A DNA stretch of 58,407 nt, the filler included, from Sphacelaria rigidula (taxonomy: Eukaryota), in NCBI GenBank assembly GCA_964200075.2. It is 4 parts of 4 records of this genome, joined end to end, with 100 filler letters (N's around TTAATTAATTAA, not from the genome) between each part and the next. Parts side by side here need not be neighbours in the genome. Positions count along the whole stretch, not along the records: positions 43,882 to 58,407 come from CAXNAA020002207.1; 3 more parts are not named here. The stretch is one strand, 5' to 3'. The notes below the pieces were generated by a model. The model was not told the DNA's origin. It ran no database searches and saw only the letters and a program-made list of their open reading frames with translations. The translations under genes and the position numbers were made by a program. Of the stretch, positions 6,166 through 55,548 are shown in pieces. The first letter of the stretch is position 1. Each line of letters begins with the position of its first letter.

Positions 6166-6569
6166 AAATACATTAAAAAATCACTGTCAGCTGGCCCAGC
6201 CTGTACATCAAAATGTAGTGATGGCGAAATGGATACAGTCAGTGGCATACAGTACGGAGTGAATAAGTGAAGAGTAGTACAGTTATTTGTTGACGAAGAG
6301 GATGGGTTGCTAAAACAGGAGCCGAGATGGAGCGGTCGGGTCACATAAACACAGAAGGGTCTTGCTACCTATGGCGCGGATTCCATCCTTGTGGCTTGGG
6401 AAAGCGCAGGGGAGGTGTGATGTATCCGCAAGTCGCCTGAGGTTCTTACAGAGACTGGTGCGACTGCATTCAGCACAATCCCCAGATGGGAGCCAACGGT
6501 AGGATACGTGAGGAGTCGCCCTGTATTTGTACGGGTGATTCATGAGGTTTTCCCTAACCCGCCCGCCCC

Positions 6570-6646
6570 TGCTCCGTCTCGAAAGGGATGTGTGGTCAAC
6601 GGCCAAACGACTAAGGCAAGCAACAAATGAGTACGCCCCTCCCCCC
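6570..6646 (+). mobile_element. LINE 3'-end fragment (subfamily B)
   Basis: gctccgtctcgaaagggatgtgtggtcaacggccaaacgactaaggcaagcaacaaatgagtacgcccc matches 58095-58200(-) and 43270-43378. Confidence 0.75.
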
Positions 6647-7579
6647 ATGCTGGGCGTGGGGCGGGAGTGTATAGTGTGACAAAACTCAAAAGCAACTGCA
6701 AAGAGGGCTTCATTCTGTCTTCGGGAAGAATAGGTGTTTTGTGCAGGAGCGGGTAGAATTTTCCCATATGTTCATGGTGGTATAAGTTTCTTCAAGCCAT
6801 TCCAAAACAATTGGCCTGAACGATTGCCTCTAGAATGAGTCGGGTGGGACGGATCACTGTTGGAGAAGCAACACGGTACAAGGGCAAGTGCATCCGGCTA
6901 AATGCAATCCTACGGTGTGGGGAATAAGTTAGAGATTTGTGAGATCCGGGAGTCGGGCGGCGCGACCACCAGCGGGTGACCGCATCTCGAATCGTTGTTG
7001 TCTGAGTTTGTTCGGTCTGGGTTTTCCCCGCCCTCCCTTCCCTTGACGTCTTGTGGAATTGTGTTCCGCTCCAGCGCATGGCGTCAGTGTCGAAGGTTTC
7101 CCCCTGGAAATCGGGTTTTTCCTCTCAGTGAGGTTTTACCGGGGGCTGGGGTTTCCCGCGGCAGTGTTGGCAATATGATATTCTTTTTCTGAACATCCTT
7201 CCTCACCACCAACCCGATGCTTTCGATGGAGGAAGTGGCGTGGAAGAGAAGTGTGTGATGACAGGATTCCAGCAAGCATGTGCTATGTAGTGGAGCCGGC
7301 CCTCCCTGCAATGGTTTGACGTTTTGTCATCGTGTAAACGGACACGGTATGCGTAGTGGCACGGAGCAAGCTGTGGGTCGACGGAACCATTCTGCCCCCA
7401 GTGTTTGTGGCAGGCAGACGCCCTTACGGTATAGTGGAGTTGGGTTGTGGTGCATGCGGATATGTATTACTCAGTACGCGCGTTTGGGATTCTTGTCGGT
7501 ATGACGTGTCGGTAAGACGTCGGCCACGCAGCATGGGTACACCACCAGGTAGGCGCACACGCCGGCTGGCGGGAGAGAG

Positions 7580-10329: not shown

Positions 10330-13300
10330 ACAAATGAGAAGAAAGGACTTGTCAAGCACGAGGCCAGTACTACTGGAGGGGTCCCTCGTGGATAGTCCTC
10401 TTATCCAGATCGTCTGGCAGAGGCTATAATTCTTCCGGCACTCTGTTAGAGGAGTTTTGGCTGAGAAGAGATTGGGCTGCAGCTAAGAGCCAGTTTAGTC
10501 CGGAGACAGGAGGAGACCAGCTTGGAGCGCACAGGGTTGGGAGAACGCTCCGTGAACTGGAGGACGCACAAGTTAGGCAAGAGTCTCTCCGGGAAATGTT
10601 TGAAGCATAGACGACATGGCTCAAGCGGCGGCAGCGCCGCTGGTGTTAGGTGAGCTACTACAGCCGTCAAAGTAAGGTGAAGTATGGACCGAGGAATCAT
10701 CACGCATTTTTTTCGCAAGATATCTTGACTACATACAGCGGTGGAGTCTAGCGAATGCAGAAGGAAGTATACGGCATGAAAGAGTAAGCATGGGGCAACT
10801 CATTCCTGTCTACATTCACCGCTGCTTCGAAGACATGTACAAGGACGGTCGGGCTATGATCCCTGATGAAGTGCTTGCTGTGAAGCAGCATGCCGGGTAT
10901 ACTACAACCGGTGGAAAGCATGACGCTACGCGGGCTGCAGCAGACCTGCGTAGGGTACTTACAATGAAGCAAAGCGATGGAAAGTCCGTGAAGGATCGTG
11001 CTATGATGGTTAGCTCAGATATGGAACGTTTTTTTGCACAGAACCTAATGGTCCAAGCCATGTACCGTGCGGAGGACAGGAGTTGGTTGCCCGGCCCGGC
11101 CGAGTCGGTTTCCATAGCTTTGGTGGACGGGATTTCGCCCCCGGAACTCAAGGCGTATGTTAGAAGTGTACTAACGTATGTTGACGGCTGGAAAAAGAAC
11201 CCCACGGTGGTGTTTAAAACACATTTGAGGCGGCCGACCAGTGAAAGGTTATTGAAGCACATGGCCGGCGCGACTCTGCAACAAGTGCAGGTGGTATGCG
11301 CCGCAAACAGCAACAGAAACAGAAACAGCAGCCGTCTACGCGAGAGTCGTCCACTCGCGCGTGTTACAACTGCGGCGACACCGGACACAGGGCCCAAAGC
11401 AATGCACGAGATTTATCAGGATCTCGGGGCGGTCGTCACGGTGGACGGAGCCGCGCCAATCAGGGACGCGGGAGTGTCGGCCGCGGTAGAAAGCAATCGG
11501 CGGCGGATGGTAGTACCTCCGCTGCTGTTTCTTCCACTGCGTCATCAGGTGGTGACTCTGGATCTTATGGTTCGTCCGTAGCGGGGCGGACAGTGTACGT
11601 GGGAAATGCTAATACTTCGGTGGGAGTGCCGGAGCGAATAGCTCGCAACCCCTCGGCCAGGCAGGATCCCTAGTGCTGCGACGGCTGGAACAGCGAGGTC
11701 TGCATATTCGGCGACTTGGTCTGGTTGGACCGACAATTCGCAGCTATCGATGCCAAGTGCTGGAGGGCAGCCCTGGCGTCAGGTGACTCTTGGGACAGAA
11801 CAGGGTTCTTCGGCAGGCGTGGTACCTGTCGATCGCAAGGCTAAATGCTTACGCGCAGATTTAGCCTTGCCTGGTTCTGTAGGTTCGTTCATGGCCCGCG
11901 TTATTCTGGATTCTGGGTCCGCGTTCACATCGATCATGTCTTCGCAGTTTGGCGGCGCTCAACTTCAGATTCCGTTTGAAAACGGACCGCAAACGGCACA
12001 GACCGCCACGGGTGCTCCCGTGACGGTCACACACAAAACGGTGCCAACTACTGTCAGCGTGCGTACGCCGTGGGGGGCTGTGCAGTTGCAGTCCATTACT
12101 CTTGCTGTCATGCCCGGTAGGGATAACGTGGTTCTATTTGGGATGGCGACAGTGAAGGAGCTTGGGATTGATTTATATCCGCTGGCATTGGAGAAGTTAC
12201 GTCCAAGTGCTGTGCCGGTGCAAACCGGCGTGGAAAACCCCGGTTACCTTGCTGCAAGGTGTGTGATCGTATCCATACGGTCATTCCAGAGCGCCAATGA
12301 GGAGGAGGCTTCTGCTGATGAAGCGGTAAAGCGCTTGGTCGATCGGGGATCTGATATGTTCATGGACCCAGCAGAGGAGAGGGGTTCAAGAAAATGTGCG
12401 CTTGAGGATAGTGTGCGGCAGGCTGAGCAGAAGGGCCTGAGCACCGATGGCTCACATTGTCTGCGCGATATTTTGGCTCGTCGCGTAGATACATTTCGTC
12501 GTGCGCTGCGTGGTGATCCACCAGCGCGCGTGGAGCCAATGAATGAGGCTGTGAAGACCAAGTCTCGCCACTGCGATCCGGTGAAGGCCGTGTGGCTTGC
12601 TTCATGCATCGCAGTTTTGGTGGCATTCGGGTTGTTGGTTAGGAATGTTCAGGCTGTATGGGCGAGTCCGGCGATGGCGGTGCCGAAGAGGGACACATTC
12701 CGTTTGGTCAGCGACTATCAGGCGGTGAACGTCTAGTGGAACAGTCTCCGGGGGTTATGCCAAGCCAAGAAGACATGCGGGAGTTGCTGGGAGCCCAACA
12801 ACAATATCGGTATGTCAGTGAACACATTCCTGGGGAGCGCATCTTTGGGGGAGATTAGTTGTCGTGCTTGGTTAAGGTTCCTACCGTGGCTGTTCGTTCT
12901 GTTGCCGTGTACAGCCCGCGTGATGTCGTTGATTCGCTGCCCTCGTTAGATGTCATTCGTACCGCGCAGCGCAAAACAGTCGGCGACGGCACTCATTCTT
13001 TTCCTACGACTTTCGGTCAAGCTACTACGGCTGACGATGGTTTGTTTTGCGTGCGTGTTGGCAGTAGTGATATTTTGTGGATTCCGTCGGATGATAAGGA
13101 TCTACAAACTCGCTTGATGGTGTGCGCTGACTCTGTTTCGTTTAAAAGAATACTTTGTGTGGCCTCACATGGATTCCCACGTTCGCGAGTTCGTTCGATA
13201 GTGTTTGCATTGTGCAGACACCCGTGCCGGTGAGATTGTACCTCGCCCGTATGGCGATACTGTGCATGGTGCTGCGCCAGGTGAAGTTATTCACTTTGAT

Positions 13301-14527
13301 TTTCTGTACGTTGGAAGTAGCGGACCTGAAGGTGTTAATGGTCTGCCTGAGGAGGATGGTCCTCGGTACGTTTTGGTCATCATGGATGATTTGACCCACT
13401 TTCGTTTGCTTGGAGCCGACCGAGGCTTGCACCGCCCAGGTTACGGCTAAGCACTTGCTCCATTGGTGCAAGACTTTGGGGGTGCCGCGTGTTTGGGTTA
13501 GTGATACCGCCACGCACTTCAAGAATCGAGTGATGGCGCAGCGATGCGCTGAAGGTGCAACACCAATTTGCTGTTGTGTATACCCCTTGGTCGAATGGTC
13601 CTTGTGAACGCATGGTGAAAGAGGTTATTTGTACGTTGAGGTCTATTCTGTCAGAACAGCGACGGCCAGTGTCTGAATGGGTTGATGTTTTTTCAGCCGC
13701 TCAGTGCGCGTTGAATACTTCTTTTCGTGAACGCTACCGTAACACTCCGTACTGTGTGACGTTTGGGCGTGCGCCGCCTACAGCTTTTTCCGCGCTGGCT
13801 TCTGTCACTGGCGGCGAGTGGAAAGTCGATGTCATGGATGCTGATTCGTTGCGTGACAAGGTTCGAGGCGTGGTTGATGAGCAAGTGCCGTTTTGTAACG
13901 AAGTGCAAGCTGCTGTCGCGGTGTCTCGCGAAACCAAACGCAAGCTTGCTCAGGGCCAGGCTGTGTTGCCCAAGTTTGCAGTTGGCGATTTAGTTTTGTA
14001 TGGCCGTGTTCGTAGGCAAGGTGTGACGCCAATGTTGATGTCGACGTGGACAGGCCCGTGGCGAGTGGTCGGAGCCGATCACGCTCACGTGCATTCGGTG
14101 CAGAACGTTGTTTCTGGCGCCGTGCACTCGGCCCATGTCGCTCGTTCACGTTTCCATGCTGACTCGCAGTTGCACATCACTGAGGAACTAACAGATGCAT
14201 GTCAGCATTCGTATGCTCAAGGTGAATGTCGAATGAATGCTCTGCTGCACGTCGCTGAGGATGACAATGGTGATAGTCACTGTTTTGGTCGATTGGGAAG
14301 GGTTCGGTGCTGAAGAACGTGCGTGGGAGTCTCTTTGCAAGATTCATTCTTCTGCGCCTGAATTTGTTTTGAAGGAACTGTCTAAAATGCGGTTAACTCG
14401 GGCGCTGGCCAGTAAATTAGCGTCGGAGTATGGTATTTCTTTGCGATCTGGCGCATGCGATTTCGCCTTGGTTTTTGTTGGTTGTCAAGCTCGTTCGTTT
14501 GTCTTGAAGTCGCTTTGCGGGTGCTGT
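10330..14527 (+). mobile_element. Degenerate Ty3/Gypsy LTR retrotransposon with chromodomain integrase (gag-PR-[RT/RH deleted]-IN-chromo)
   Basis: Gag zinc knuckle CYNCGDTGH (~11361); protease VILDSGS (~11900); RT start WASPAMAVPK..FRLVSDY (~12660-12720); RNase H end YRYVSEHIPG (~12805); integrase VIHFDFL, VLVIMDD, WVSDTATHFKN, NGPCERM (13285-13615); chromodomain VLVDWEGFGAEERAWESL (~14280-14335). Multiple frameshifts and stops. LTRs not identified; 3' end cut by the block edge. Confidence 0.93.
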
Positions 14528-34070: not shown

Positions 34071-42428
<8,358 letters not shown>

Positions 42429-47497: not shown

Positions 47498-50400
47498 TCA
47501 GACCGGGGCCGGTGTTGGTGCAGGGGTCGGCGCAGGGGTCGGCGCCGGTGTTGGTGCAGGGGTCGGCGCGGGGGTCGGCGCCGGTGTTGGCGCAGGGGTC
47601 GGCGCCGGTGTTGGCGCAGGGGTCGGCGCGGGGGTCGGCGCCGGTGTTGGCGCAGGGGTCGGCGCAGGAGTCGGCGCCGGTGTTGGTGCAGGGGTCGGCG
47701 CAGGAGTCGGCGCCGTTGTTGGCGCAGGGGTCGGCGCAGGGGTCGGCGCCGGTGTTGGCGCAGGGGTCGGCGCAGGGGTCGGCGCAGGGGTCGGTGCCGG
47801 TGTTGGCGCAGGGATCGGTGCAGGGGTCGGCGAAGGAGTTGGCACAGGGGTGACGGGAGCCATGGTCGGCGCTGGGGACGGCACAGGTGTGACGGGAGCC
47901 GTGGTCGGCGCTGGGGTCGGCACAGGTGTGACGGGAGCCATGGTCGGCGCTGGGGACGGCACGGGTGTGACGGGAGCCGTGGTCGGCGCTGGGGTCGGCA
48001 CAGGTGTGACGGGAGCCGTGGTCGGCGCTGGGGTCACCACGGGCGCAGGTGTGCGAGAGTCGTCGTTGAAGAGGATCAGCTGAACGACGCAGACGTTTCT
48101 GGTGCAGAAGACCGGAAACCTCTGTCGCCGGTTAAACACGGGAGTGAACGTGGCGAGTCTGACCGGCGTGCGAAGGACGACCAGGCCATTGACGACCCCG
48201 ATCAGGAAGGGGTTCGAGTTGGCGATCGAGATAGTCCGGCGGAAGATCTCCACCGTCACGATAGTCAAAATCACCTGACATTCGAAAAACCGCAGAGTTC
48301 AAGGCGACGACACCGGAAGAGTGGACGATTGTTCGGCGAACGAGAAATAAGGAAGGCGATATGTTGGTATCGTGTTCTCGCTGCCTCACCACGCGTGCTC
48401 TATACCGGCGCCCACGTCATGTTGATCATGGGACGAAAATGGCTCGCTGGCTATGGTTGTCCCCTATCGCCGACACGACCCGCGATGAGGAACCCAACTC
48501 GGACCATGCTGCCCCCCCTCCCCGCCCATTCATCGGGCGTCGGGTTCCGGGAGAGAGTCGTGTTCTTTTCGACCATGATACTCGACACAAACAGTCAACT
48601 TACAACCTACCGTGCAACACACAAATCTGCTCAGCGACAACCGAGGGATTGACGATAGAACCGCCAGACGGCGGTCAACGCCTCCACGCCAACAAGGCCT
48701 TCGCCCTTGCCCAAGGGATACGATACGTATTCTCGTGAAACAGTAGACAGAGTAAATGTACTTCTGGTGTGTAGCCCCACAACTGACGAGTTTGTAACCT
48801 TGAGACCTTCTGACGGCTGTGTCGTGAGTTCAAATCCCGGCGACGTTATACAAGCTGAGCTCATCTCTCACACCATGCAAAACAGCAGAAAGCGACCATG
48901 TCGTGGGTACACAATATTCGACTTCACGGTCGACGAGGAAAAAGGACAGCTGAACACCTCTCGCGAAAAATAAGTGAGGCAAGTACCGCGAGAGGAAGGT
49001 GGGGTACTAAAACAAACGAAAGACAAACCCCCGTGTTGGCCTTCCTCCTGGATGACTCCGGCTGACGTGCCCACCTATACCGAAATATGCGAACTGGCGT
49101 CCAGGATAAATGACATGGCAACACGCGCGCACACACACATCTACAGACAGTAAGCCTGGGAGGTGCACAACGGATCGCTCACATTGATGGTCGACCGCCC
49201 CTGAAGACTGCGAGACTCGTCATTCTGCGCTGCCATCGCCGTGTTCTCCGCTCCGGTCGCTTCCGTCAACCTTCGTGCGGCTGACACGAAAACTGTGACC
49301 TGTCCCACCACGACTCCAGTTTGGTCCACTAAAATGACCGTGGGGGTCTCGCCGACCACCAGATCTCCCGGTCGGATGATTGCGGAGCCTACCGCAAGGC
49401 CCGGTATTCCTGCATATTCGCAGCAACGAGGGCAAGGCCGATCTCAACAGAACGGGTGCGTTCACGAACTATAGTATGCAGGACAGCCACGGAGCACGAC
49501 CCCGATTGCGGGAACTAGCACAACGCAACCGTCTTGTACCAGGCCCGACAAACTCCGGCACCTCGGCAGGTCATGACAAAACCATCAGAACAGAAAACCC
49601 CCTCCCACGTGGCCTCACCCGGTATCGACACGATGTCCTGGAATCCTGCCACCGGGGCCGGCGTCGGGGCCTGCCTGGCAGTCGGCGCCGGCGTGGCAGT
49701 CGGCGCCGGCGTGGCAGTCGGAGCTGGCGTGGCAGTCGGGGTCACCGTGGGTGCCGGAGTGACCTTCTTCGCTGCAACCGACGGAGGCAGAAACACAGAG
49801 CGGCACAACCGGGGCGCGTGGAAGACGTAGCAGCAAAACATGTGAATTCAAAACACCGCTGCTGCGCGAGGGGCGGGGGAGGGGGTGGCGGGTGGCGGTG
49901 GGATGGGTCGATACACGGTGCCATTTCGACGAAGACGGGCACGCATGTCGACATACCGCTCGTGATTGACCGCATACCTGCTATGCCGTTGTTTTCGACA
50001 CCAGCCGACCACGAAAAACAAGTTATAACTTGGACCATTTCTACAGCATGGCACACGGGACGTTAGGCAGGTCGGCGGTGTACTCACCAGGGAATCTCCG
50101 GCCTCTGCGCCCACCACGCCTTCTTCGCCTCCTCCCCTTCCTGCCCCTCCCCCTCCTCCTCCGGCTCCTCCTCCCGCCCCTCCTCCTTCTCTTCTTACCC
50201 CTTCCCCGGCCCTTTCTCTTGAGATCTCGTCTCTCCTCCTCACCTGAATTTAGGGGGGCAACAGCGCGGATAATGACGGCAAGAAGTGGAGGCGTTGGCG
50301 GCGTTGGCATCCCCTGTGCGGTTCATCATATACGAGGTGCGCGACTGCACTACAAGGCATCGTTGGCAACGACACATTATTCGAGTACGGATTGCGCCAG

Positions 50401-51860
50401 GCCGAAAACCGATACTTCTCTACCGCCTGATGACGGCTTCTTCAGTCTCCCACATTGACCCGATGCAAGTATATCGCTCGAGAGTGTAGACCAGCCTGCT
50501 GATGAATGTTCCCCGGCTCGGAAAAGCACCAACTCAAGAACGGAACCAGATCATGCTGAAAACAAAAGCCATGTGTCGGGAGCGGAACTAGTAACTTTCG
50601 CAGCTGGAGTGCGGTGTCATGGAAAGTTGAACGCCTCACACAAGTGGGAGCACAGGATTCTTCACGGACGTCGCGAACGTTCCTTTCCCTCCCATGGTTC
50701 CATACCGTGTTCATCTTACAGACCCGACGAAGTAAAAACGCTCTTGTCGGGATTCGAACCCACGACCTACCGCCTTGTGGCGCCGTATTTTTCCACCGTC
50801 ATACACTCTCACCGGAATGCACGACCCCATTCTGGTCGGTTCGGGCCACAGCTGTACACACGCACCTCTCATATGTCAATGTGCAAAGACTGACCTCGGT
50901 AGCCACAAGAGTTGGGGGTATCTTTGCCGAGTCGGGACATCCCAAATACACTCCAGAATCTCCACAACATGGCTCTCATTTGCTGTCTTTTCTTTTCCGG
51001 CTACCGCGGTCCGTTTTCGCATCTCGATACCAACTCTCGAGTCTAGTGTTTAGCTTGAAGATATCGGGGCCAGACCGCGCAAGGCTAGTCAAGCGCCGAA
51101 AAACGTGCTTCGAGCCAGTGAGCGTGTAGCACGTTCTGACGCTCGGTAGCATCTGAAAGGCCCACCTTCCGCTGATGCACGCGTAACGGAGCCCTGAGTC
51201 ACTGCAGGGACAGACGCCGTGGCCAAGGCTGTCGGACGCTCATCTTCCCGGAAAGCCACTGCCGCAGTCCCCGACCCTAAAGCGTAAATTCAAGACACAC
51301 AGACGACATCGAACGCTGAGACATCCTCCTTTAGCATACAGGCAAACCGGAAGCCGCCAACGATGTCAACTACCACCAGTTCGACACCAATCGAATGCCC
51401 GGTCACCTCGAAGAAATGAACAGATATCAGTGAGATGCTGCTCGTGGTGACGACATCTGACATGCACGTGCGCCACGATCAAATCCCTGCAGCACATCCT
51501 ACACGCCTGCCTTGGCGCTCCACTGACGACCGTGATATTGTAATGCGTGAGAGGACCGCGTGCTTAGAGGACCGCATCGGAATTGGAGAACCCCCATGGT
51601 TAGAGATGGGGTTAGGGTTAGTGTTGGGGTTAGGGTCAGGGGCGAGATACCTGCAGGGACTGACCCGGTTGGTTTTGAAGAACGTCGATCCTGAGGTATT
51701 TTGAACTACGGCGCGGTCCTCTAAGCACGCGGTCCTCTCAAGCAATACAAAATCCAAGACATTCGACCTGCCACTCACCCGCTGCAGTTGAACGCTCGAA
51801 GAGGGCCAAGCAAAAGGTGATCCCAACCACACATGCGTACAGCCTCTTCGCCGACCACAT
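47498..51860 (-). CDS. Secreted Pro/Thr-rich (TPAP) mucin/extensin-like protein with Arg/Gly-rich polycationic segment, ~501 aa (exons 51779-51860, 51166-51276, 50088-50243, 49619-49771, 49183-49409, 47498-48274)
   Basis: Six GT-AG exons with compatible phases total 1506 nt. Signal-peptide-like start [48 protein letters not shown]...; two TPAP repeat blocks; stop at 47498. Exons 1-3 are less certain than exons 4-6. Confidence 0.78.
47500..48055 (-). repeat. Coding tandem repeat: 12-bp units (TPAP) and 39-bp units ([13 protein letters not shown])
   Basis: ggggtcggcgca / ggtgttggcgca arrays on the plus strand. Confidence 0.92.
48772..49140 (+). mobile_element. tRNA-derived SINE (family B) in intron 5 of the secreted-protein gene
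   Basis: B box gagttcaaatccc; body aligns to 23793-24170; (CA) tail. Confidence 0.8.
50480..50810 (-). mobile_element. tRNA-derived SINE (different family)
   Basis: Minus strand ggtcgtgggttcgaatcccgacaag (B box at ~50745-50765); the 3' boundary is approximate. Confidence 0.5.
51539..51749 (+). mobile_element. ~210-bp telomeric-repeat MITE (family C), copy 1, in intron 1
   Basis: 37-bp TIR TGTAATGCGTGAGAGGACCGCGTGCTTAGAGGACCGC; internal gggttagggtta. Confidence 0.88.
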
Positions 51861-52164
51861 CTTGTCCGCCGCGTGTCCCGATCGCAGTCTGTAGAGCACA
51901 ATTCAGCACACGAAGCAAAAAAAAGGCAGCGTGCCATCTTGAGGTGATGTCTCTTCGAAGCCGCGATATGACTGGCGTCAGCCCATGTGTAATCGTCGAG
52001 TGTCCCGAGTCTCCCTGCCCCCCCCCCCCCCCCCCCCCCCCCCTCTGAGGGTTTCTGATCCAGCGCAGGCAACACTAATGATTGGAATGAGTCGATGAAC
52101 CGCAAGAGTCGGCGTTGTTCCTCCTCCCTACTGTGGAGACATCCGTCTCCGTAATAATAAAACA

Positions 52165-52294
52165 GTGTTGGGATTAGGGTCAGGGGGGATCCCTGCAGGG
52201 ACTGGTCCGACTGGTATTGAGAAACGTGTATCTTGGGGTGTTTCGAACCACGATGCGGTCCGAAACGCCCGCGGTCCCCCCACGCATTATTACA
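52165..52294 (+). mobile_element. MITE family C, truncated copy 2
   Basis: 3' half only: ctgcagggactg...gcggtcc...cacgcatta. Confidence 0.7.
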
Positions 52295-53577
52295 ACATCA
52301 CACACATCGTTTCATCTCTTCCAAAAACTGCACACGTGCACACGATGTCCACTCGACTATAAACGGCCGAAGACGTCCATCTCTATTCGCGCCAACGAAC
52401 ACTTGGCTAGCCGGGCGACATCTCTGTCGACCACGCGATAAAGCCGTCGACGGACGTGCAACAAGGGCTGTGCGAGGCTTCTCATGACGGCCATTGCCGC
52501 CTCTTCTTGAACGAAATCACCACCGAAAACCCTAGAAAAAGAAGCCTCTATCGCCTTCCTCATGGAAATGGACCCCCAGCAATCCATGTTTTCATGACGT
52601 CACTCACGGCGAGTCACTCCTCTCCATGACGCTCAACATACCTAGAATGCTTACCCACGGCCCGCATTCCACCGGGTAGCACAGACGGCCACGGTACACA
52701 CACACTGCCTTCTCACCGTGACTCCTAGGTGTGGCAGCTGCTGTCCCGAAAAATGATGAAGGGCCGGGTCTCGATTGTTTTTGATGTGGATGGCGGGAGG
52801 AGGGAAGGGGGGGGGGGGGGAAGGGGGGTTGGCGAGAGCAGCGAACAGGGTGGCGAAACGTGTCCCATTTCCTTGCGGGCACCTGTTTCATAACCTGCCC
52901 AAGTGCTGGTACGGACATGACTGAGACGTACATGTATTTTCCACGTTTCATTTATACAGCATGAATGACGGGCACAGGCGTTTTCTGCTGCTTCATCGGT
53001 GCGACATGGCTCGTGCGCACATGTGACACACCCGGACCAAGCTCGACCAATGAGAACGGACGTGTGAAATCGACTCTTTGATCGCCAAGGTAGGCAGGTC
53101 ATTCCTTGAATCGGTCATAATTTGAGTTGGAGAATGTGCTCAAGACTCACACGATCCACACTGGCGGTGACGAGGTCATCCTGTGACCGCCGGGGTAGGT
53201 TACCTAATCAGGGGTCGTAATATCCTTCGAGGGAAAATGATGTCGATTCGACGGATGGCCTACCCTGCAAGCCAAACGGTTGCGGCGCGCGAGATATGGA
53301 ACGCCAGCCATGGGTAGAGGAAGTATTTGGTTGTTTGCATGAACCATATCGTCAGACTCTCTGCCGGAACGCTCATACAGTTGCGGCCCGCAATTAATGA
53401 AGATGTAGTCAAGAAAAATAGGCTGGGCCTTTCACGGAAAATTGGAAAAATGGACTAAGAAACACACCTCAAGCTGGGCGACAAGATAAGAAACATGAAA
53501 ATAAGAAACAGCGCGGATACATACCTAAAATAGGCATAAATAAGAAAAATAAGAAACTAGGTGACTGGGGAGCTCCC

Positions 53578-53789
53578 TGTAATGCGTGAGAGGACCGCGT
53601 GCTTAGAGGACCGCATCGGAATTTGAACATCACTATGGTGAAGGTTAGGGTTAGGGTAAGTGTTAGGGTTATGGTCAGGGGCGTGGTACCTCCAGGGACT
53701 GACCCAATTGGTTTTTAAAAAACGTCGATCCTGAGGTGTTTTGAATCACGGCGCGGTCCTCTAAGCACGCGGTCCTCTCACGCATTACA
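53578..53789 (+). mobile_element. MITE family C, copy 3, with 5-bp TSD CTCCC
   Basis: Perfect 37-bp TIR; ctccc on both flanks. Confidence 0.92.
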
Positions 53790-54997
53790 CTCCCTCCCAA
53801 CTAAGAAACGTACCCATAATATCAAGACCCCCCCCCCCCCTGCTGAACTATACTTTTGTGGGAGCGGCATAATACGTTCTTGATTTACGGCTGTTTCGTG
53901 CGGCGCGATCGAAGCCGGTTGGGGCTGTTCTTTGTGCGGCCGCTAGGCCTGAGTCCTTTGTGCCGGCATAATTCCTAGCATCACTCGTATTTTTTGCCCG
54001 AATTAGCCTACGAGCATCATGCCAGCATGATCAGGGCTGAGGTAGCGTAATACCCCGTTTAGCGGCATAATCCGGTAGCACAAAAATCGATACCGGCTAT
54101 TTCGATTGTAGAGCATGACCTTTACAGCCGAACACAAAACATGCGGTAGCAGCGGTGGCTTCTGTTTCAGCAAAATAGCCTCAGTTTTCTTTTGTGCGGT
54201 GTCCCTGAAAATCATTGTCTTGTTTTGGTTGTTCTGCATGGGGGAGGAAGCACAGCACAACCTACCTAGCATTTTGAGTAGCGCCAGTTAGACACTGTAG
54301 AGCTGCGGGGGTGTTTTTCCTTGGGTAAGTTGCGTGGAGCGAGGAGGTGGCGGAGGCAGTACATCGAGGATATAACAAAACGACAATTTAAGAAAACCAA
54401 CAGGATCCGGTCGGCCAGAAATATACGAAAACTCAATACAAGAAAAGACACAACTGATGCTAGTGTTTGCGCCCGAAGTAAGACTTTGAGCCTCGACCCC
54501 AAACTGACATTTCTTATCTCCGGGCCGTAACTGTATGACGTGTGCATATTCCTCACCTGGCGTCCGGTCCACAGGGCACGGATCACGTGTACACGTTTCC
54601 CACCTGCCCCTCCTACGGCGAAAAACAGACGCACATGTTCTCAGTCGTGGTTTGTTCGGCCCAAATGAAGCGTACATGGGTATCCTTCATGCGGCACGAA
54701 TTACATGTACATGTTTCTCAGGCTGTCCGCATTATCGAGACGAAATAGTAAGAACGGTGATAGACGTATCTCAAACTCGATGTCCCAGCTATATTTCACG
54801 ACAAGCTTGGGGAATTCTGGGCTTCGAGTTTGAGACATTCCTCAAACGACTCTTCCGAACAGAAATCAACGAGTTCTCAGCTGGATCTTTGACGAAAGTC
54901 CTCCCCCGTTTACAAGCTTGATTGAGTTCATATTATTTCCAATGTGAGGCCGTGTCTTGCTTAGCACATCGTTTTCGATCGAAACAATTTAAGCACC

Positions 54998-55326: not shown

Positions 55327-55548
55327 TGTAATGCGTCATAGGACCGCGTGCTTCGAGCACCGCATCGGAATTTGAACATCGCTATGGTTAGGGTTAGGGT
55401 TAGGGTTAGGGTAAGTGTTGGGGTCAGGGTCAGGTGCGTGGTTCCTGCAGGGACCGGCTCCATTGGTTCTGAAAAACGTCGATCCAGAGGTGTGTCGAAC
55501 TACTGTACGATGCGGTCCTCTACGCACGCGGTCCTTTCACGCATTGCA
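55327..55548 (+). mobile_element. MITE family C, copy 4 (4-bp CCGA flanks)
   Basis: TIRs plus (GGGTTA)4. Confidence 0.88.

Follow-up and report, generated by a model that had tools for sequence, protein, structure and literature searches.

What kind of protein joins a signal-like N-terminus, a strongly basic peptide, a Val/Ile-rich domain interrupted by Arg-x-Leu (RxL) motifs, and long Thr-Pro-Ala-Pro (TPAP) repeats? The question is raised by a gene of the brown alga Sphacelaria rigidula (assembly GCA_964200075.2, record CAXNAA020002207.1). All coordinates are positions on the analyzed stretch of 58,407 nucleotides (nt), hereafter called the window. The initial annotation had recognized no named family in this architecture and left the Val/Ile-rich domain unnamed. 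We identify that domain here as a degenerate C2 domain whose halves are very probably swapped, apparently originating from a type of gene that encodes many C2 domains in tandem (poly-C2). On balance, we lean towards a secreted protein matured at RxL sites into a two-chain, permuted and calcium-independent C2 domain, with a polycationic arm for binding alginate or fucans. That the gene is coding is almost certain, and we give an even chance to polyanion binding in the wall or in an adhesive being its main role.

The gene family

The gene, on the minus strand, runs from an ATG at 51860 to a stop at 47500-47498 and encodes 464 amino acids (aa). Its five coding exons (51860-51779, 50243-50088, 49771-49619, 49409-49183, and 48274-47498; respectively 82, 156, 153, 227, and 777 nt) join in frame with phases 1, 1, 1, and 0, and GTGAG is the donor at all four introns. 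Searching the genome gave 16 hits for the exon-5 domain and 14 for exon 4. For 13 of the 16 loci, the window gene included, we obtained complete five-exon models free of internal stops, and the repetition of this layout indicates that the structure of the window gene is more than chance. Exons 1-2 are missing from L040 and L041 in the stretch examined; in L045, exon 1 is missing and exon 4 is divergent. Four exon boundaries in the paralog models were placed by hand. Two public predictions labelled S. rigidula, P0001 and P0002, splice L040 and L045 as modelled here with one exception, a read-through in P0002 of the donor motif after strand 5; these are gene predictions, not proof of expression.

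The precursors are 289-464 aa long (593 in L031, where the frame is changed). The ratio of non-synonymous to synonymous rates (dN/dS) is below 1 in all five exons, ranging from 0.14-0.17 in exon 2, the most constrained, to 0.38-0.78 in the others. The closest copy of the window gene is L031 (contig C6571, about 6300-6950), with introns 85-95% identical to those of the window; its frame change, real or an assembly error, makes the TPAP tail Arg/Pro/Leu-rich. Long intron matches are restricted to this copy, and the comparison with distant paralogs gives only short patches.

A C2 domain with its halves very probably in swapped order

Exon 5 matches the C2 profile PF00168 in 13 of 16 paralogs (best E-value 6.4e-5). 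The match of the window exon (E = 0.018, 15.7-15.9 bits, profile positions 21-75 of 104) is under the Pfam gathering cut-off of 22 bits, and the spliced paralogs P0001 and P0002 have no PF00168 match at E = 0.01. A profile search of 1.84 billion representative sequences gave 30 hits, of which five are family-like and the rest are mostly long proteins with repeated matches; the seven non-family hits that we scanned are all C2 proteins. One of these seven, P0016, pointed us to a tandem poly-C2 gene of this same genome, on contigs C387 and C6028 (L058-L061), and the reciprocal search from a poly-C2 exon matched 10 family contigs. The B exons of that gene pass the Pfam cut-off, and their comparison with family exon 5 gives an hhalign probability of 98% (E = 1.7e-13).

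In the poly-C2 gene we found 20 B exons, which cover Pfam positions about 3-74 and run from phase 0 to phase 1, and 19 A exons, which carry the remainder of the domain and an acidic linker. All A exons have a phase-1 acceptor, 12 have a phase-0 donor at codon 70-100, and the two types alternate save at two places. About 20 two-exon units of the gene are visible, most of them with intact calcium ligands and two with altered first loops. The junction positions and phases of family exons 4 and 5 are those of the A and B exons. When a profile of family exon 4 was run on 713 frames, the six hits above 6 bits were all poly-C2 A exons (best E = 3.8e-4). Conversely, the A profile scores at least 5 bits on 11 of 15 family exons 4, against 35 of 3000 shuffled sequences. 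Exon 4 and the A exons align in register, and the phase-1 acceptor splits the same Gly codon in both.

These similarities, together with the common intron positions and phases, imply that exons 4 and 5 correspond to the A exon of one unit and the B exon of the next, A(n) + B(n+1). From the alignments, we have hardly any doubt that strands 1-5 derive from a C2 domain, and strands 6-8 very probably do so too. The resulting strand order differs from both type I and type II, since a block resembling strands 6-8 precedes strand 1 in 15/15 loci; after strand 5 there is nothing C2-like, only the TPAP tail. A tree of 67 B halves places the family, with two database proteins, alone on its side of a long branch (support 100/100), and separates the family plus the poly-C2-type rows from the 29 other C2 rows (94/95).

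Calcium sites, cysteines, and a paralog lacking the spacer

The five calcium ligand positions were taken from the poly-C2 alignment. Asp occupies them in 16/18, 16/18, 18/18, 16/18, and 16/16 poly-C2 units, and in 0/15, 1/15, 0/15, 7/15, and 0/15 family members, of which 14/15 have Asn at the second and likewise at the third position. Calcium-binding loop 3 would be opened by the permutation itself. In seawater, a calcium switch would serve little purpose. All 16 paralogs have two Cys around the loop that precedes strand 5, which likely form a disulfide.

The most divergent paralog, L045 (contig C26123, 1375-3164), has RxLR, a basic segment, and a stalk, followed by a 105-nt A-type exon. Its A half is joined to B by about four residues, without a spacer, and a phase-1 GT donor motif follows strand 5, where the poly-C2 exons have their donor. 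The short join means that the spacer is dispensable, and it fits the folding of both halves within one chain. We consider it probable that the halves fold together. L045 also has additional Cys, one in strand 5 and one in its A exon, that could staple the opened loop. A search with this A exon retrieved only itself.

Structure predictions

The structure model of P0001 packs both halves in one sandwich (aligned range 25-184; low confidence). In the models of both P0001 and P0002, the region matched by type I C2 chains begins at the last exon-4 strand and ends with strand 5. A permutation would predict this, but Z is no higher than 5.1. Complex prediction of the two halves, without alignments, gave 0.76, 0.26, and 0.24. 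Foldseek searches with the models gave no match at E = 0.001. VIA-align gave best Z scores of 7.2 and 4.8, both to unrelated sandwiches, and the C2 rows of these low-confidence models (Z 3.3-5.1) stand amid unrelated sandwiches. Sequence searches of solved structures returned nothing under E = 0.38, with two C2 entries at E about 1, and an atlas search gave C2 clusters at a score of 0.81, as a lead only.

RxL motifs and the acidic spacer

Homologues lacking the RxL sites and the basic segment would have refuted the initial annotation, but they keep both: the three sites recur across the loci (Table 1) and the basic exon is retained. Site 1 reads RxLR in 11 and RxLK in 3 of 14 loci, and site 2 reads RRLxE in 13/15. 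The spacer between sites 2 and 3 aligns with the start of the poly-C2 linker and is absent in L045. No RxL occurs in 533 aa of poly-C2 linkers, and this comparison suggests that the three conserved sites emerged within or next to a linker whose donor counterpart has none. According to two diatom studies, RXL marks many wall proteins and is removed by a protease given as unknown (PMC5525289, PMC4557024). We consider it probable that the three sites of the family are cut as well.

Acidity of the pro-peptide, which had been part of the first description, is not a consistent trait, with 0 to 4 acidic residues ahead of the RxL across paralogs. The notion of an RxL-processed precursor that delivers a basic peptide stands in part. 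A secreted-type N-terminus, conserved RxL sites, and a selected Arg/Gly segment agree with it, but no RxL separates the basic segment from the stalk, and the peptide would thus stay tethered unless RRF, at the end of the segment, is also cut.

The Arg/Gly exon and its reading frame

Our recount of the 42 residues after EEERRDL gave exactly the numbers first reported, 30 Arg/Lys and 11 Gly. In the 13 full models the basic segment spans 29-44 aa, none of them acidic. Across the family it is single-copy, has 21-28 Arg, 1-7 Lys, and almost no hydrophobic residues, and uses all six Arg codons. Since exon 1 ends in phase 1 in 13/13 models, the frame of exon 2 is fixed. Moreover, all 14 lengths of exon 2 and 41/41 of its internal alignment gaps are multiples of three. 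Because the alignment made for dN/dS favors the Arg frame in this exon, we used a frame-blind DNA alignment as a control. It gave 969 synonymous and 1002 non-synonymous changes in the Arg frame, 412 and 1643 in the Gly/Glu frame, and 136 and 1839 in the third, as pairwise counts from pairs that are not independent. The signal is absent when the window gene is compared with its closest copy alone (4 synonymous, 11 non-synonymous). The Gly/Glu frame, which the initial annotation had named as the reading that would overturn its own, is open in 13/14 loci, yet it is out of phase with exon 1 and disfavored by the substitutions. A DNA-pattern scan for further basic exons found none, with a pattern that was probably badly designed.

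Proposed origin and maturation, and the alternatives

We propose that an exon pair lying across a unit boundary of a poly-C2 gene (with strands 6-8 and the linker from unit n, and strands 1-5 from unit n+1) was captured and set behind three exons encoding a signal peptide, the Arg/Gly segment, and a Thr/Pro stalk. The C2 domain would have been opened at calcium-binding loop 3 and closed via the old inter-domain linker. After removal of the signal, an RxL endopeptidase would trim the pro-peptide and excise the acidic linker, with strands 6-8 remaining clasped in strands 1-5 as a two-chain beta-sandwich. Chain 1 would comprise the +30 arm, the stalk, and strands 6-8, and chain 2 strands 1-5 and the mucin-like tail. 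The brown-algal wall is negatively charged by alginate and fucans; the arm would bind alginate or sulfated fucan electrostatically, and the protein would act as a wall or adhesive cross-linker. Secretion, cleavage, the two-chain product, O-glycosylation of the stalks, and electrostatic binding by the arm are steps that we infer from the sequence.

Several observations weigh against this explanation. Exon 4 has no Pfam hit, as is also the case for poly-C2 A exons taken alone (0/4), and its homology to the A exons is weak by hhalign (E = 0.0039, probability 8.6). The tree of B halves is built on 76 columns and has a long branch and an unsettled bootstrap. The sequence seen does not reach the ends of the poly-C2 gene, including the start, which would bear on its own location in the cell. 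The models of P0001 and P0002 have low confidence (mean predicted local distance difference test scores of 52 and 48), because only the B half, exon 5, had alignment depth, and in the P0001 model the C2 rows (Z 4.7-5.1) fall behind the unrelated sandwich at 7.2. Constraint on strands 1-5 is weak (dN/dS 0.71-0.78). Seven further RxL occur outside the three sites in 5415 aa, five of them at one place in exon 5. Finally, some of the 16 loci may be alleles.

The alternative that survives best is that the arm is released as a free peptide, between the RxL before it and the RRF after it, for antimicrobial or antifouling defence, with the C2 domain as a carrier or surface anchor. Silaffin peptides are freed from their precursor at RXL-type sites, according to PMC4557024. 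In our family, RRF ends the segment in 12/14 loci, and 16 loci with variable tails and a dN/dS of 0.7-0.8 in strands 1-5 would suit a defence-type family. However, RRF is not an RxL and is missing in L042 and L043, and the basic segment is the most constrained exon rather than a diversifying one. Most membrane-lytic peptides have more hydrophobic residues than this arm, which has almost none. We hold the free peptide to be unlikely.

The halves might also complement each other in trans, with strands 6-8 completing strands 1-5 of another molecule or of a paralog and giving chains or mixed products. The two halves belonged to different domains in the ancestral array, and the 30-residue linker between them has cut sites at both ends. 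Yet the turn of about four residues in L045 fits folding in cis, and the low-confidence single-chain model packs both halves in one sandwich. The trans arrangement has, in our view, a poor chance. We give still less credit to the idea that exon 4 is not C2-derived, that exon 5 is a truncated C2 remnant, and that the Val/Ile strands aggregate as a fibre-like structural core: the weak A-half scores, the missing sequence match to a solved structure, and the low model confidence speak for it, whereas the in-register match, the intron position shared with the poly-C2 A exons, and the six out of six top hits among 713 frames speak against it. That the product is not secreted, as silent copies or a nuclear protamine-like protein, is highly improbable in our view. 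The frame change in the L031 tail and the protamine-like composition of the basic segment speak for it; against it, 13/13 full models have no stop, dN/dS is below 1 in every exon, and the hydrophobic N-terminus is conserved.

If the permuted, two-chain C2 protein that we favor is real, C2 domains gain a strand order that is neither type I nor type II, in a protein that is secreted and independent of calcium. It would also be a clear example of exon capture permuting a domain, the same genome having kept both the probable donor gene type and a variant without the linker, and would offer a candidate cationic protein partner of alginate and fucans in the brown-algal wall. The question of the RxL protease would become testable outside diatoms. 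In a bolder version, which we regard as rather improbable, a third C2 topology, produced by exon capture out of a poly-C2 array, is exported and cut at RxL into two interlocking chains that can swap between molecules or paralogs; the alginate-fucan wall would thereby receive a polycationic glue that is combinatorial or forms chains, and the family would be the first brown-algal substrate set for a stramenopile RxL protease.

Comparison with known systems

Family exon 5 aligns over strands 1-5 with canonical C2 exons. In contrast to canonical domains, the family appears to be cut in calcium-binding loop 3 with three strands moved to the front, has lost Asp at four of five ligand positions in 14 or all of the 15 paralogs, and adds a Cys pair and a signal-like N-terminus. 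The poly-C2 gene and the giant multi-C2 proteins P0003, P0006, P0007, and P0009 share with it exon types, intron positions, and phases, and their A exons likewise end in an acidic linker. They differ in having about 20 units, intact ligands (16-18 of 18 per position), and linkers without RxL, whereas the family has a single A+B pair in swapped order. In swaposin-type circular permutation, the permuted domain comes from the boundary of two tandem repeats, as would be the case here. The fold is another one, however, and the boundaries of our family coincide with introns and its likely donor gene type is found in the same genome.

Protamines are short, Arg-rich, nuclear proteins without a signal peptide. 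The Arg-rich composition is common to both, but the family segment is an internal exon of a precursor with a hydrophobic N-terminus. Oomycete RxLR effectors have an acidic dEER after RxLR. The family resembles them in having RxLR after a signal-like peptide (11/14 loci); however, the segment that follows has neither acidic residues nor dEER, the alga is free-living, and nothing suggests export to host cells. The PEXEL-like motif cleaved by Toxoplasma ASP5 (PMC4764566) and the apicomplexan PEXEL/TEXEL in general find a likeness in the RRLxE form of site 2.

According to PMC5525289 and PMC4557024, diatom silaffins, cingulins, frustulins, silacidins, and silicanin-1 are similar in layout, with a signal peptide followed by RXL, internal RXL, and a polycationic segment. 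None of our searches found sequence similarity between these proteins and the family, which has Arg/Gly instead of modified Lys as cation, a brown-algal host, and a C2-derived core. Silaffin peptides are Lys-based repeats with methyl or polyamine modifications (PMC4557024), while the family segment is Arg-rich and single-copy. C2 types I and II differ by a circular permutation, according to 10.1101/2020.10.30.361964. A term search of PMC3495828 returned nothing on permutation. In the non-subscription literature that we searched, no paper treats the C2 domain together with brown alga, signal peptide, and cell wall, and its listings and abstract beginnings mention no secreted circularly permuted C2 family. 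The main text of a preprint on 60 brown-algal genomes (10.1101/2024.02.19.579948) does not mention C2 domain, RXL, or arginine-rich, and its supplements may list the orthogroup.

The range of the family looks narrow from the database hits. No other named brown alga was seen among the family-like ones; other algal genomes were not searched exon by exon. The database proteins P0005 and P0010 are of B type, with Asn for Asp and the Cys pair, and each probably represents a single exon of a relative from another organism or strain. As nothing in this assembly matches P0010 above 50%, such relatives exist elsewhere. Both proteins have Gly-Glu where the ancestral donor falls. A metagenome scan retained a single candidate out of 50; it was rejected because the locus is of bacterial type and the frame is non-coding.

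Gene model and other features of the window

The order of parts first described is borne out, from the signal-like N-terminus through EEERRDL, the basic segment, a TPAP block, and the Val/Ile domain with RRLTE and RSLQ to the TPAP tail. The exon count is not: six exons had been claimed to splice in frame, and we find five coding exons, with no further one common to distant paralogs. Eleven other frame-keeping candidates for a sixth coding exon were rejected, having no counterpart in the more distant paralogs. A pyrimidine tract with CAG sits 28 nt before the window ATG, and a YAG lies 35-42 nt ahead of the ATG in 12 paralogs, which suggests a non-coding 5' exon upstream of coding exon 1; it could be the sixth exon, outside the coordinates first given. 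A coding N-terminal extension was discarded, as there are in-frame stops between the acceptor-like site and the ATG in 5/13 models and the distances are unequal.

Exon 1 has 82 nt (85 in L031) in 13/13 full models, and encodes a basic n-region, a stretch with a 12-residue hydropathy mean of 2.5-3.1, and small residues at the end; our signal-peptide call rests on this hydropathy and on conservation. The tail, first given as about 180 aa, counts 182, including 81 Pro, 44 Thr, and 38 Ala, a composition that agrees with mucin-like or hydroxyproline-rich glycoproteins, and the stalks would be O-glycosylated. Tails vary between paralogs, being TPAP repeats, Gly/Asn/Pro repeats, or very short. In seven paralogs (L033-L037, L040, and L041), 7-residue Gly/Asn/Pro repeats replace TPAP in the exon-5 tail.

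Table 1. Features of the C2-family gene in the window (aa, amino acids; UTR, untranslated region)
Feature	Position	Strand	Remarks
Probable 5' UTR part of first coding exon	51861..51888	-	follows splice acceptor; by inference
Coding exon 1, signal-peptide-like N-terminus, aa 1-27	51779..51860	-	phase 1 donor
Short pro-peptide ending in RxL site 1 (RDL, aa 33-35)	50221..50243	-	RxL within first 7 codons of exon 2 in 14/14 loci
Arg/Gly polycationic segment, aa 36-79	50088..50220	-	25 R, 5 K, 11 G, no D/E; ends in RRF
Coding exon 3, Thr/Pro/Ala stalk	49619..49771	-	phase 1 to 1; in 16/16 loci, 132-171 nt
Putative C2 strands 6-8 (C-terminal third, placed first), aa 132-175	49276..49409	-	
RxL site 2 (RRL, aa 176-178)	49267..49275	-	15/15 loci with exon 4
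Acidic 18-aa spacer, putative former linker between C2 units	49213..49266	-	17-18 aa, 3-5 D/E, 0-1 K/R in 15/15
RxL site 3 (RSLQ, aa 197-200)	49201..49212	-	R[SG]LQ in 14/15; HSLQ in L031
C2 strands 1-5 (N-terminal two-thirds, placed second), aa 207-280	48053..48274	-	loss of calcium ligands, gain of a Cys pair
TPAP repeat tail, about 182 aa, and stop	47498..48052	-	no hydrophobic anchor; tandem repeats of period 12 and 39

Short interspersed high-copy repeats lie inside intron 1 (51537-51749) and intron 4 (48891-48970). The former shows inverted ends as well as GGTTAG-like runs, and occurs again near 52170-52280, 53560-53800, and 55386-55434.

Elsewhere in the window, motifs in open frames on the minus strand at 34800-42300 point to a multi-exon AGC-type protein kinase gene, for which we saw no link to the C2-family gene. 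On the plus strand, broken frames at 10676-14313 resemble a Ty3/gypsy retrotransposon, with gag-, protease-, and integrase-like pieces recognized by eye.

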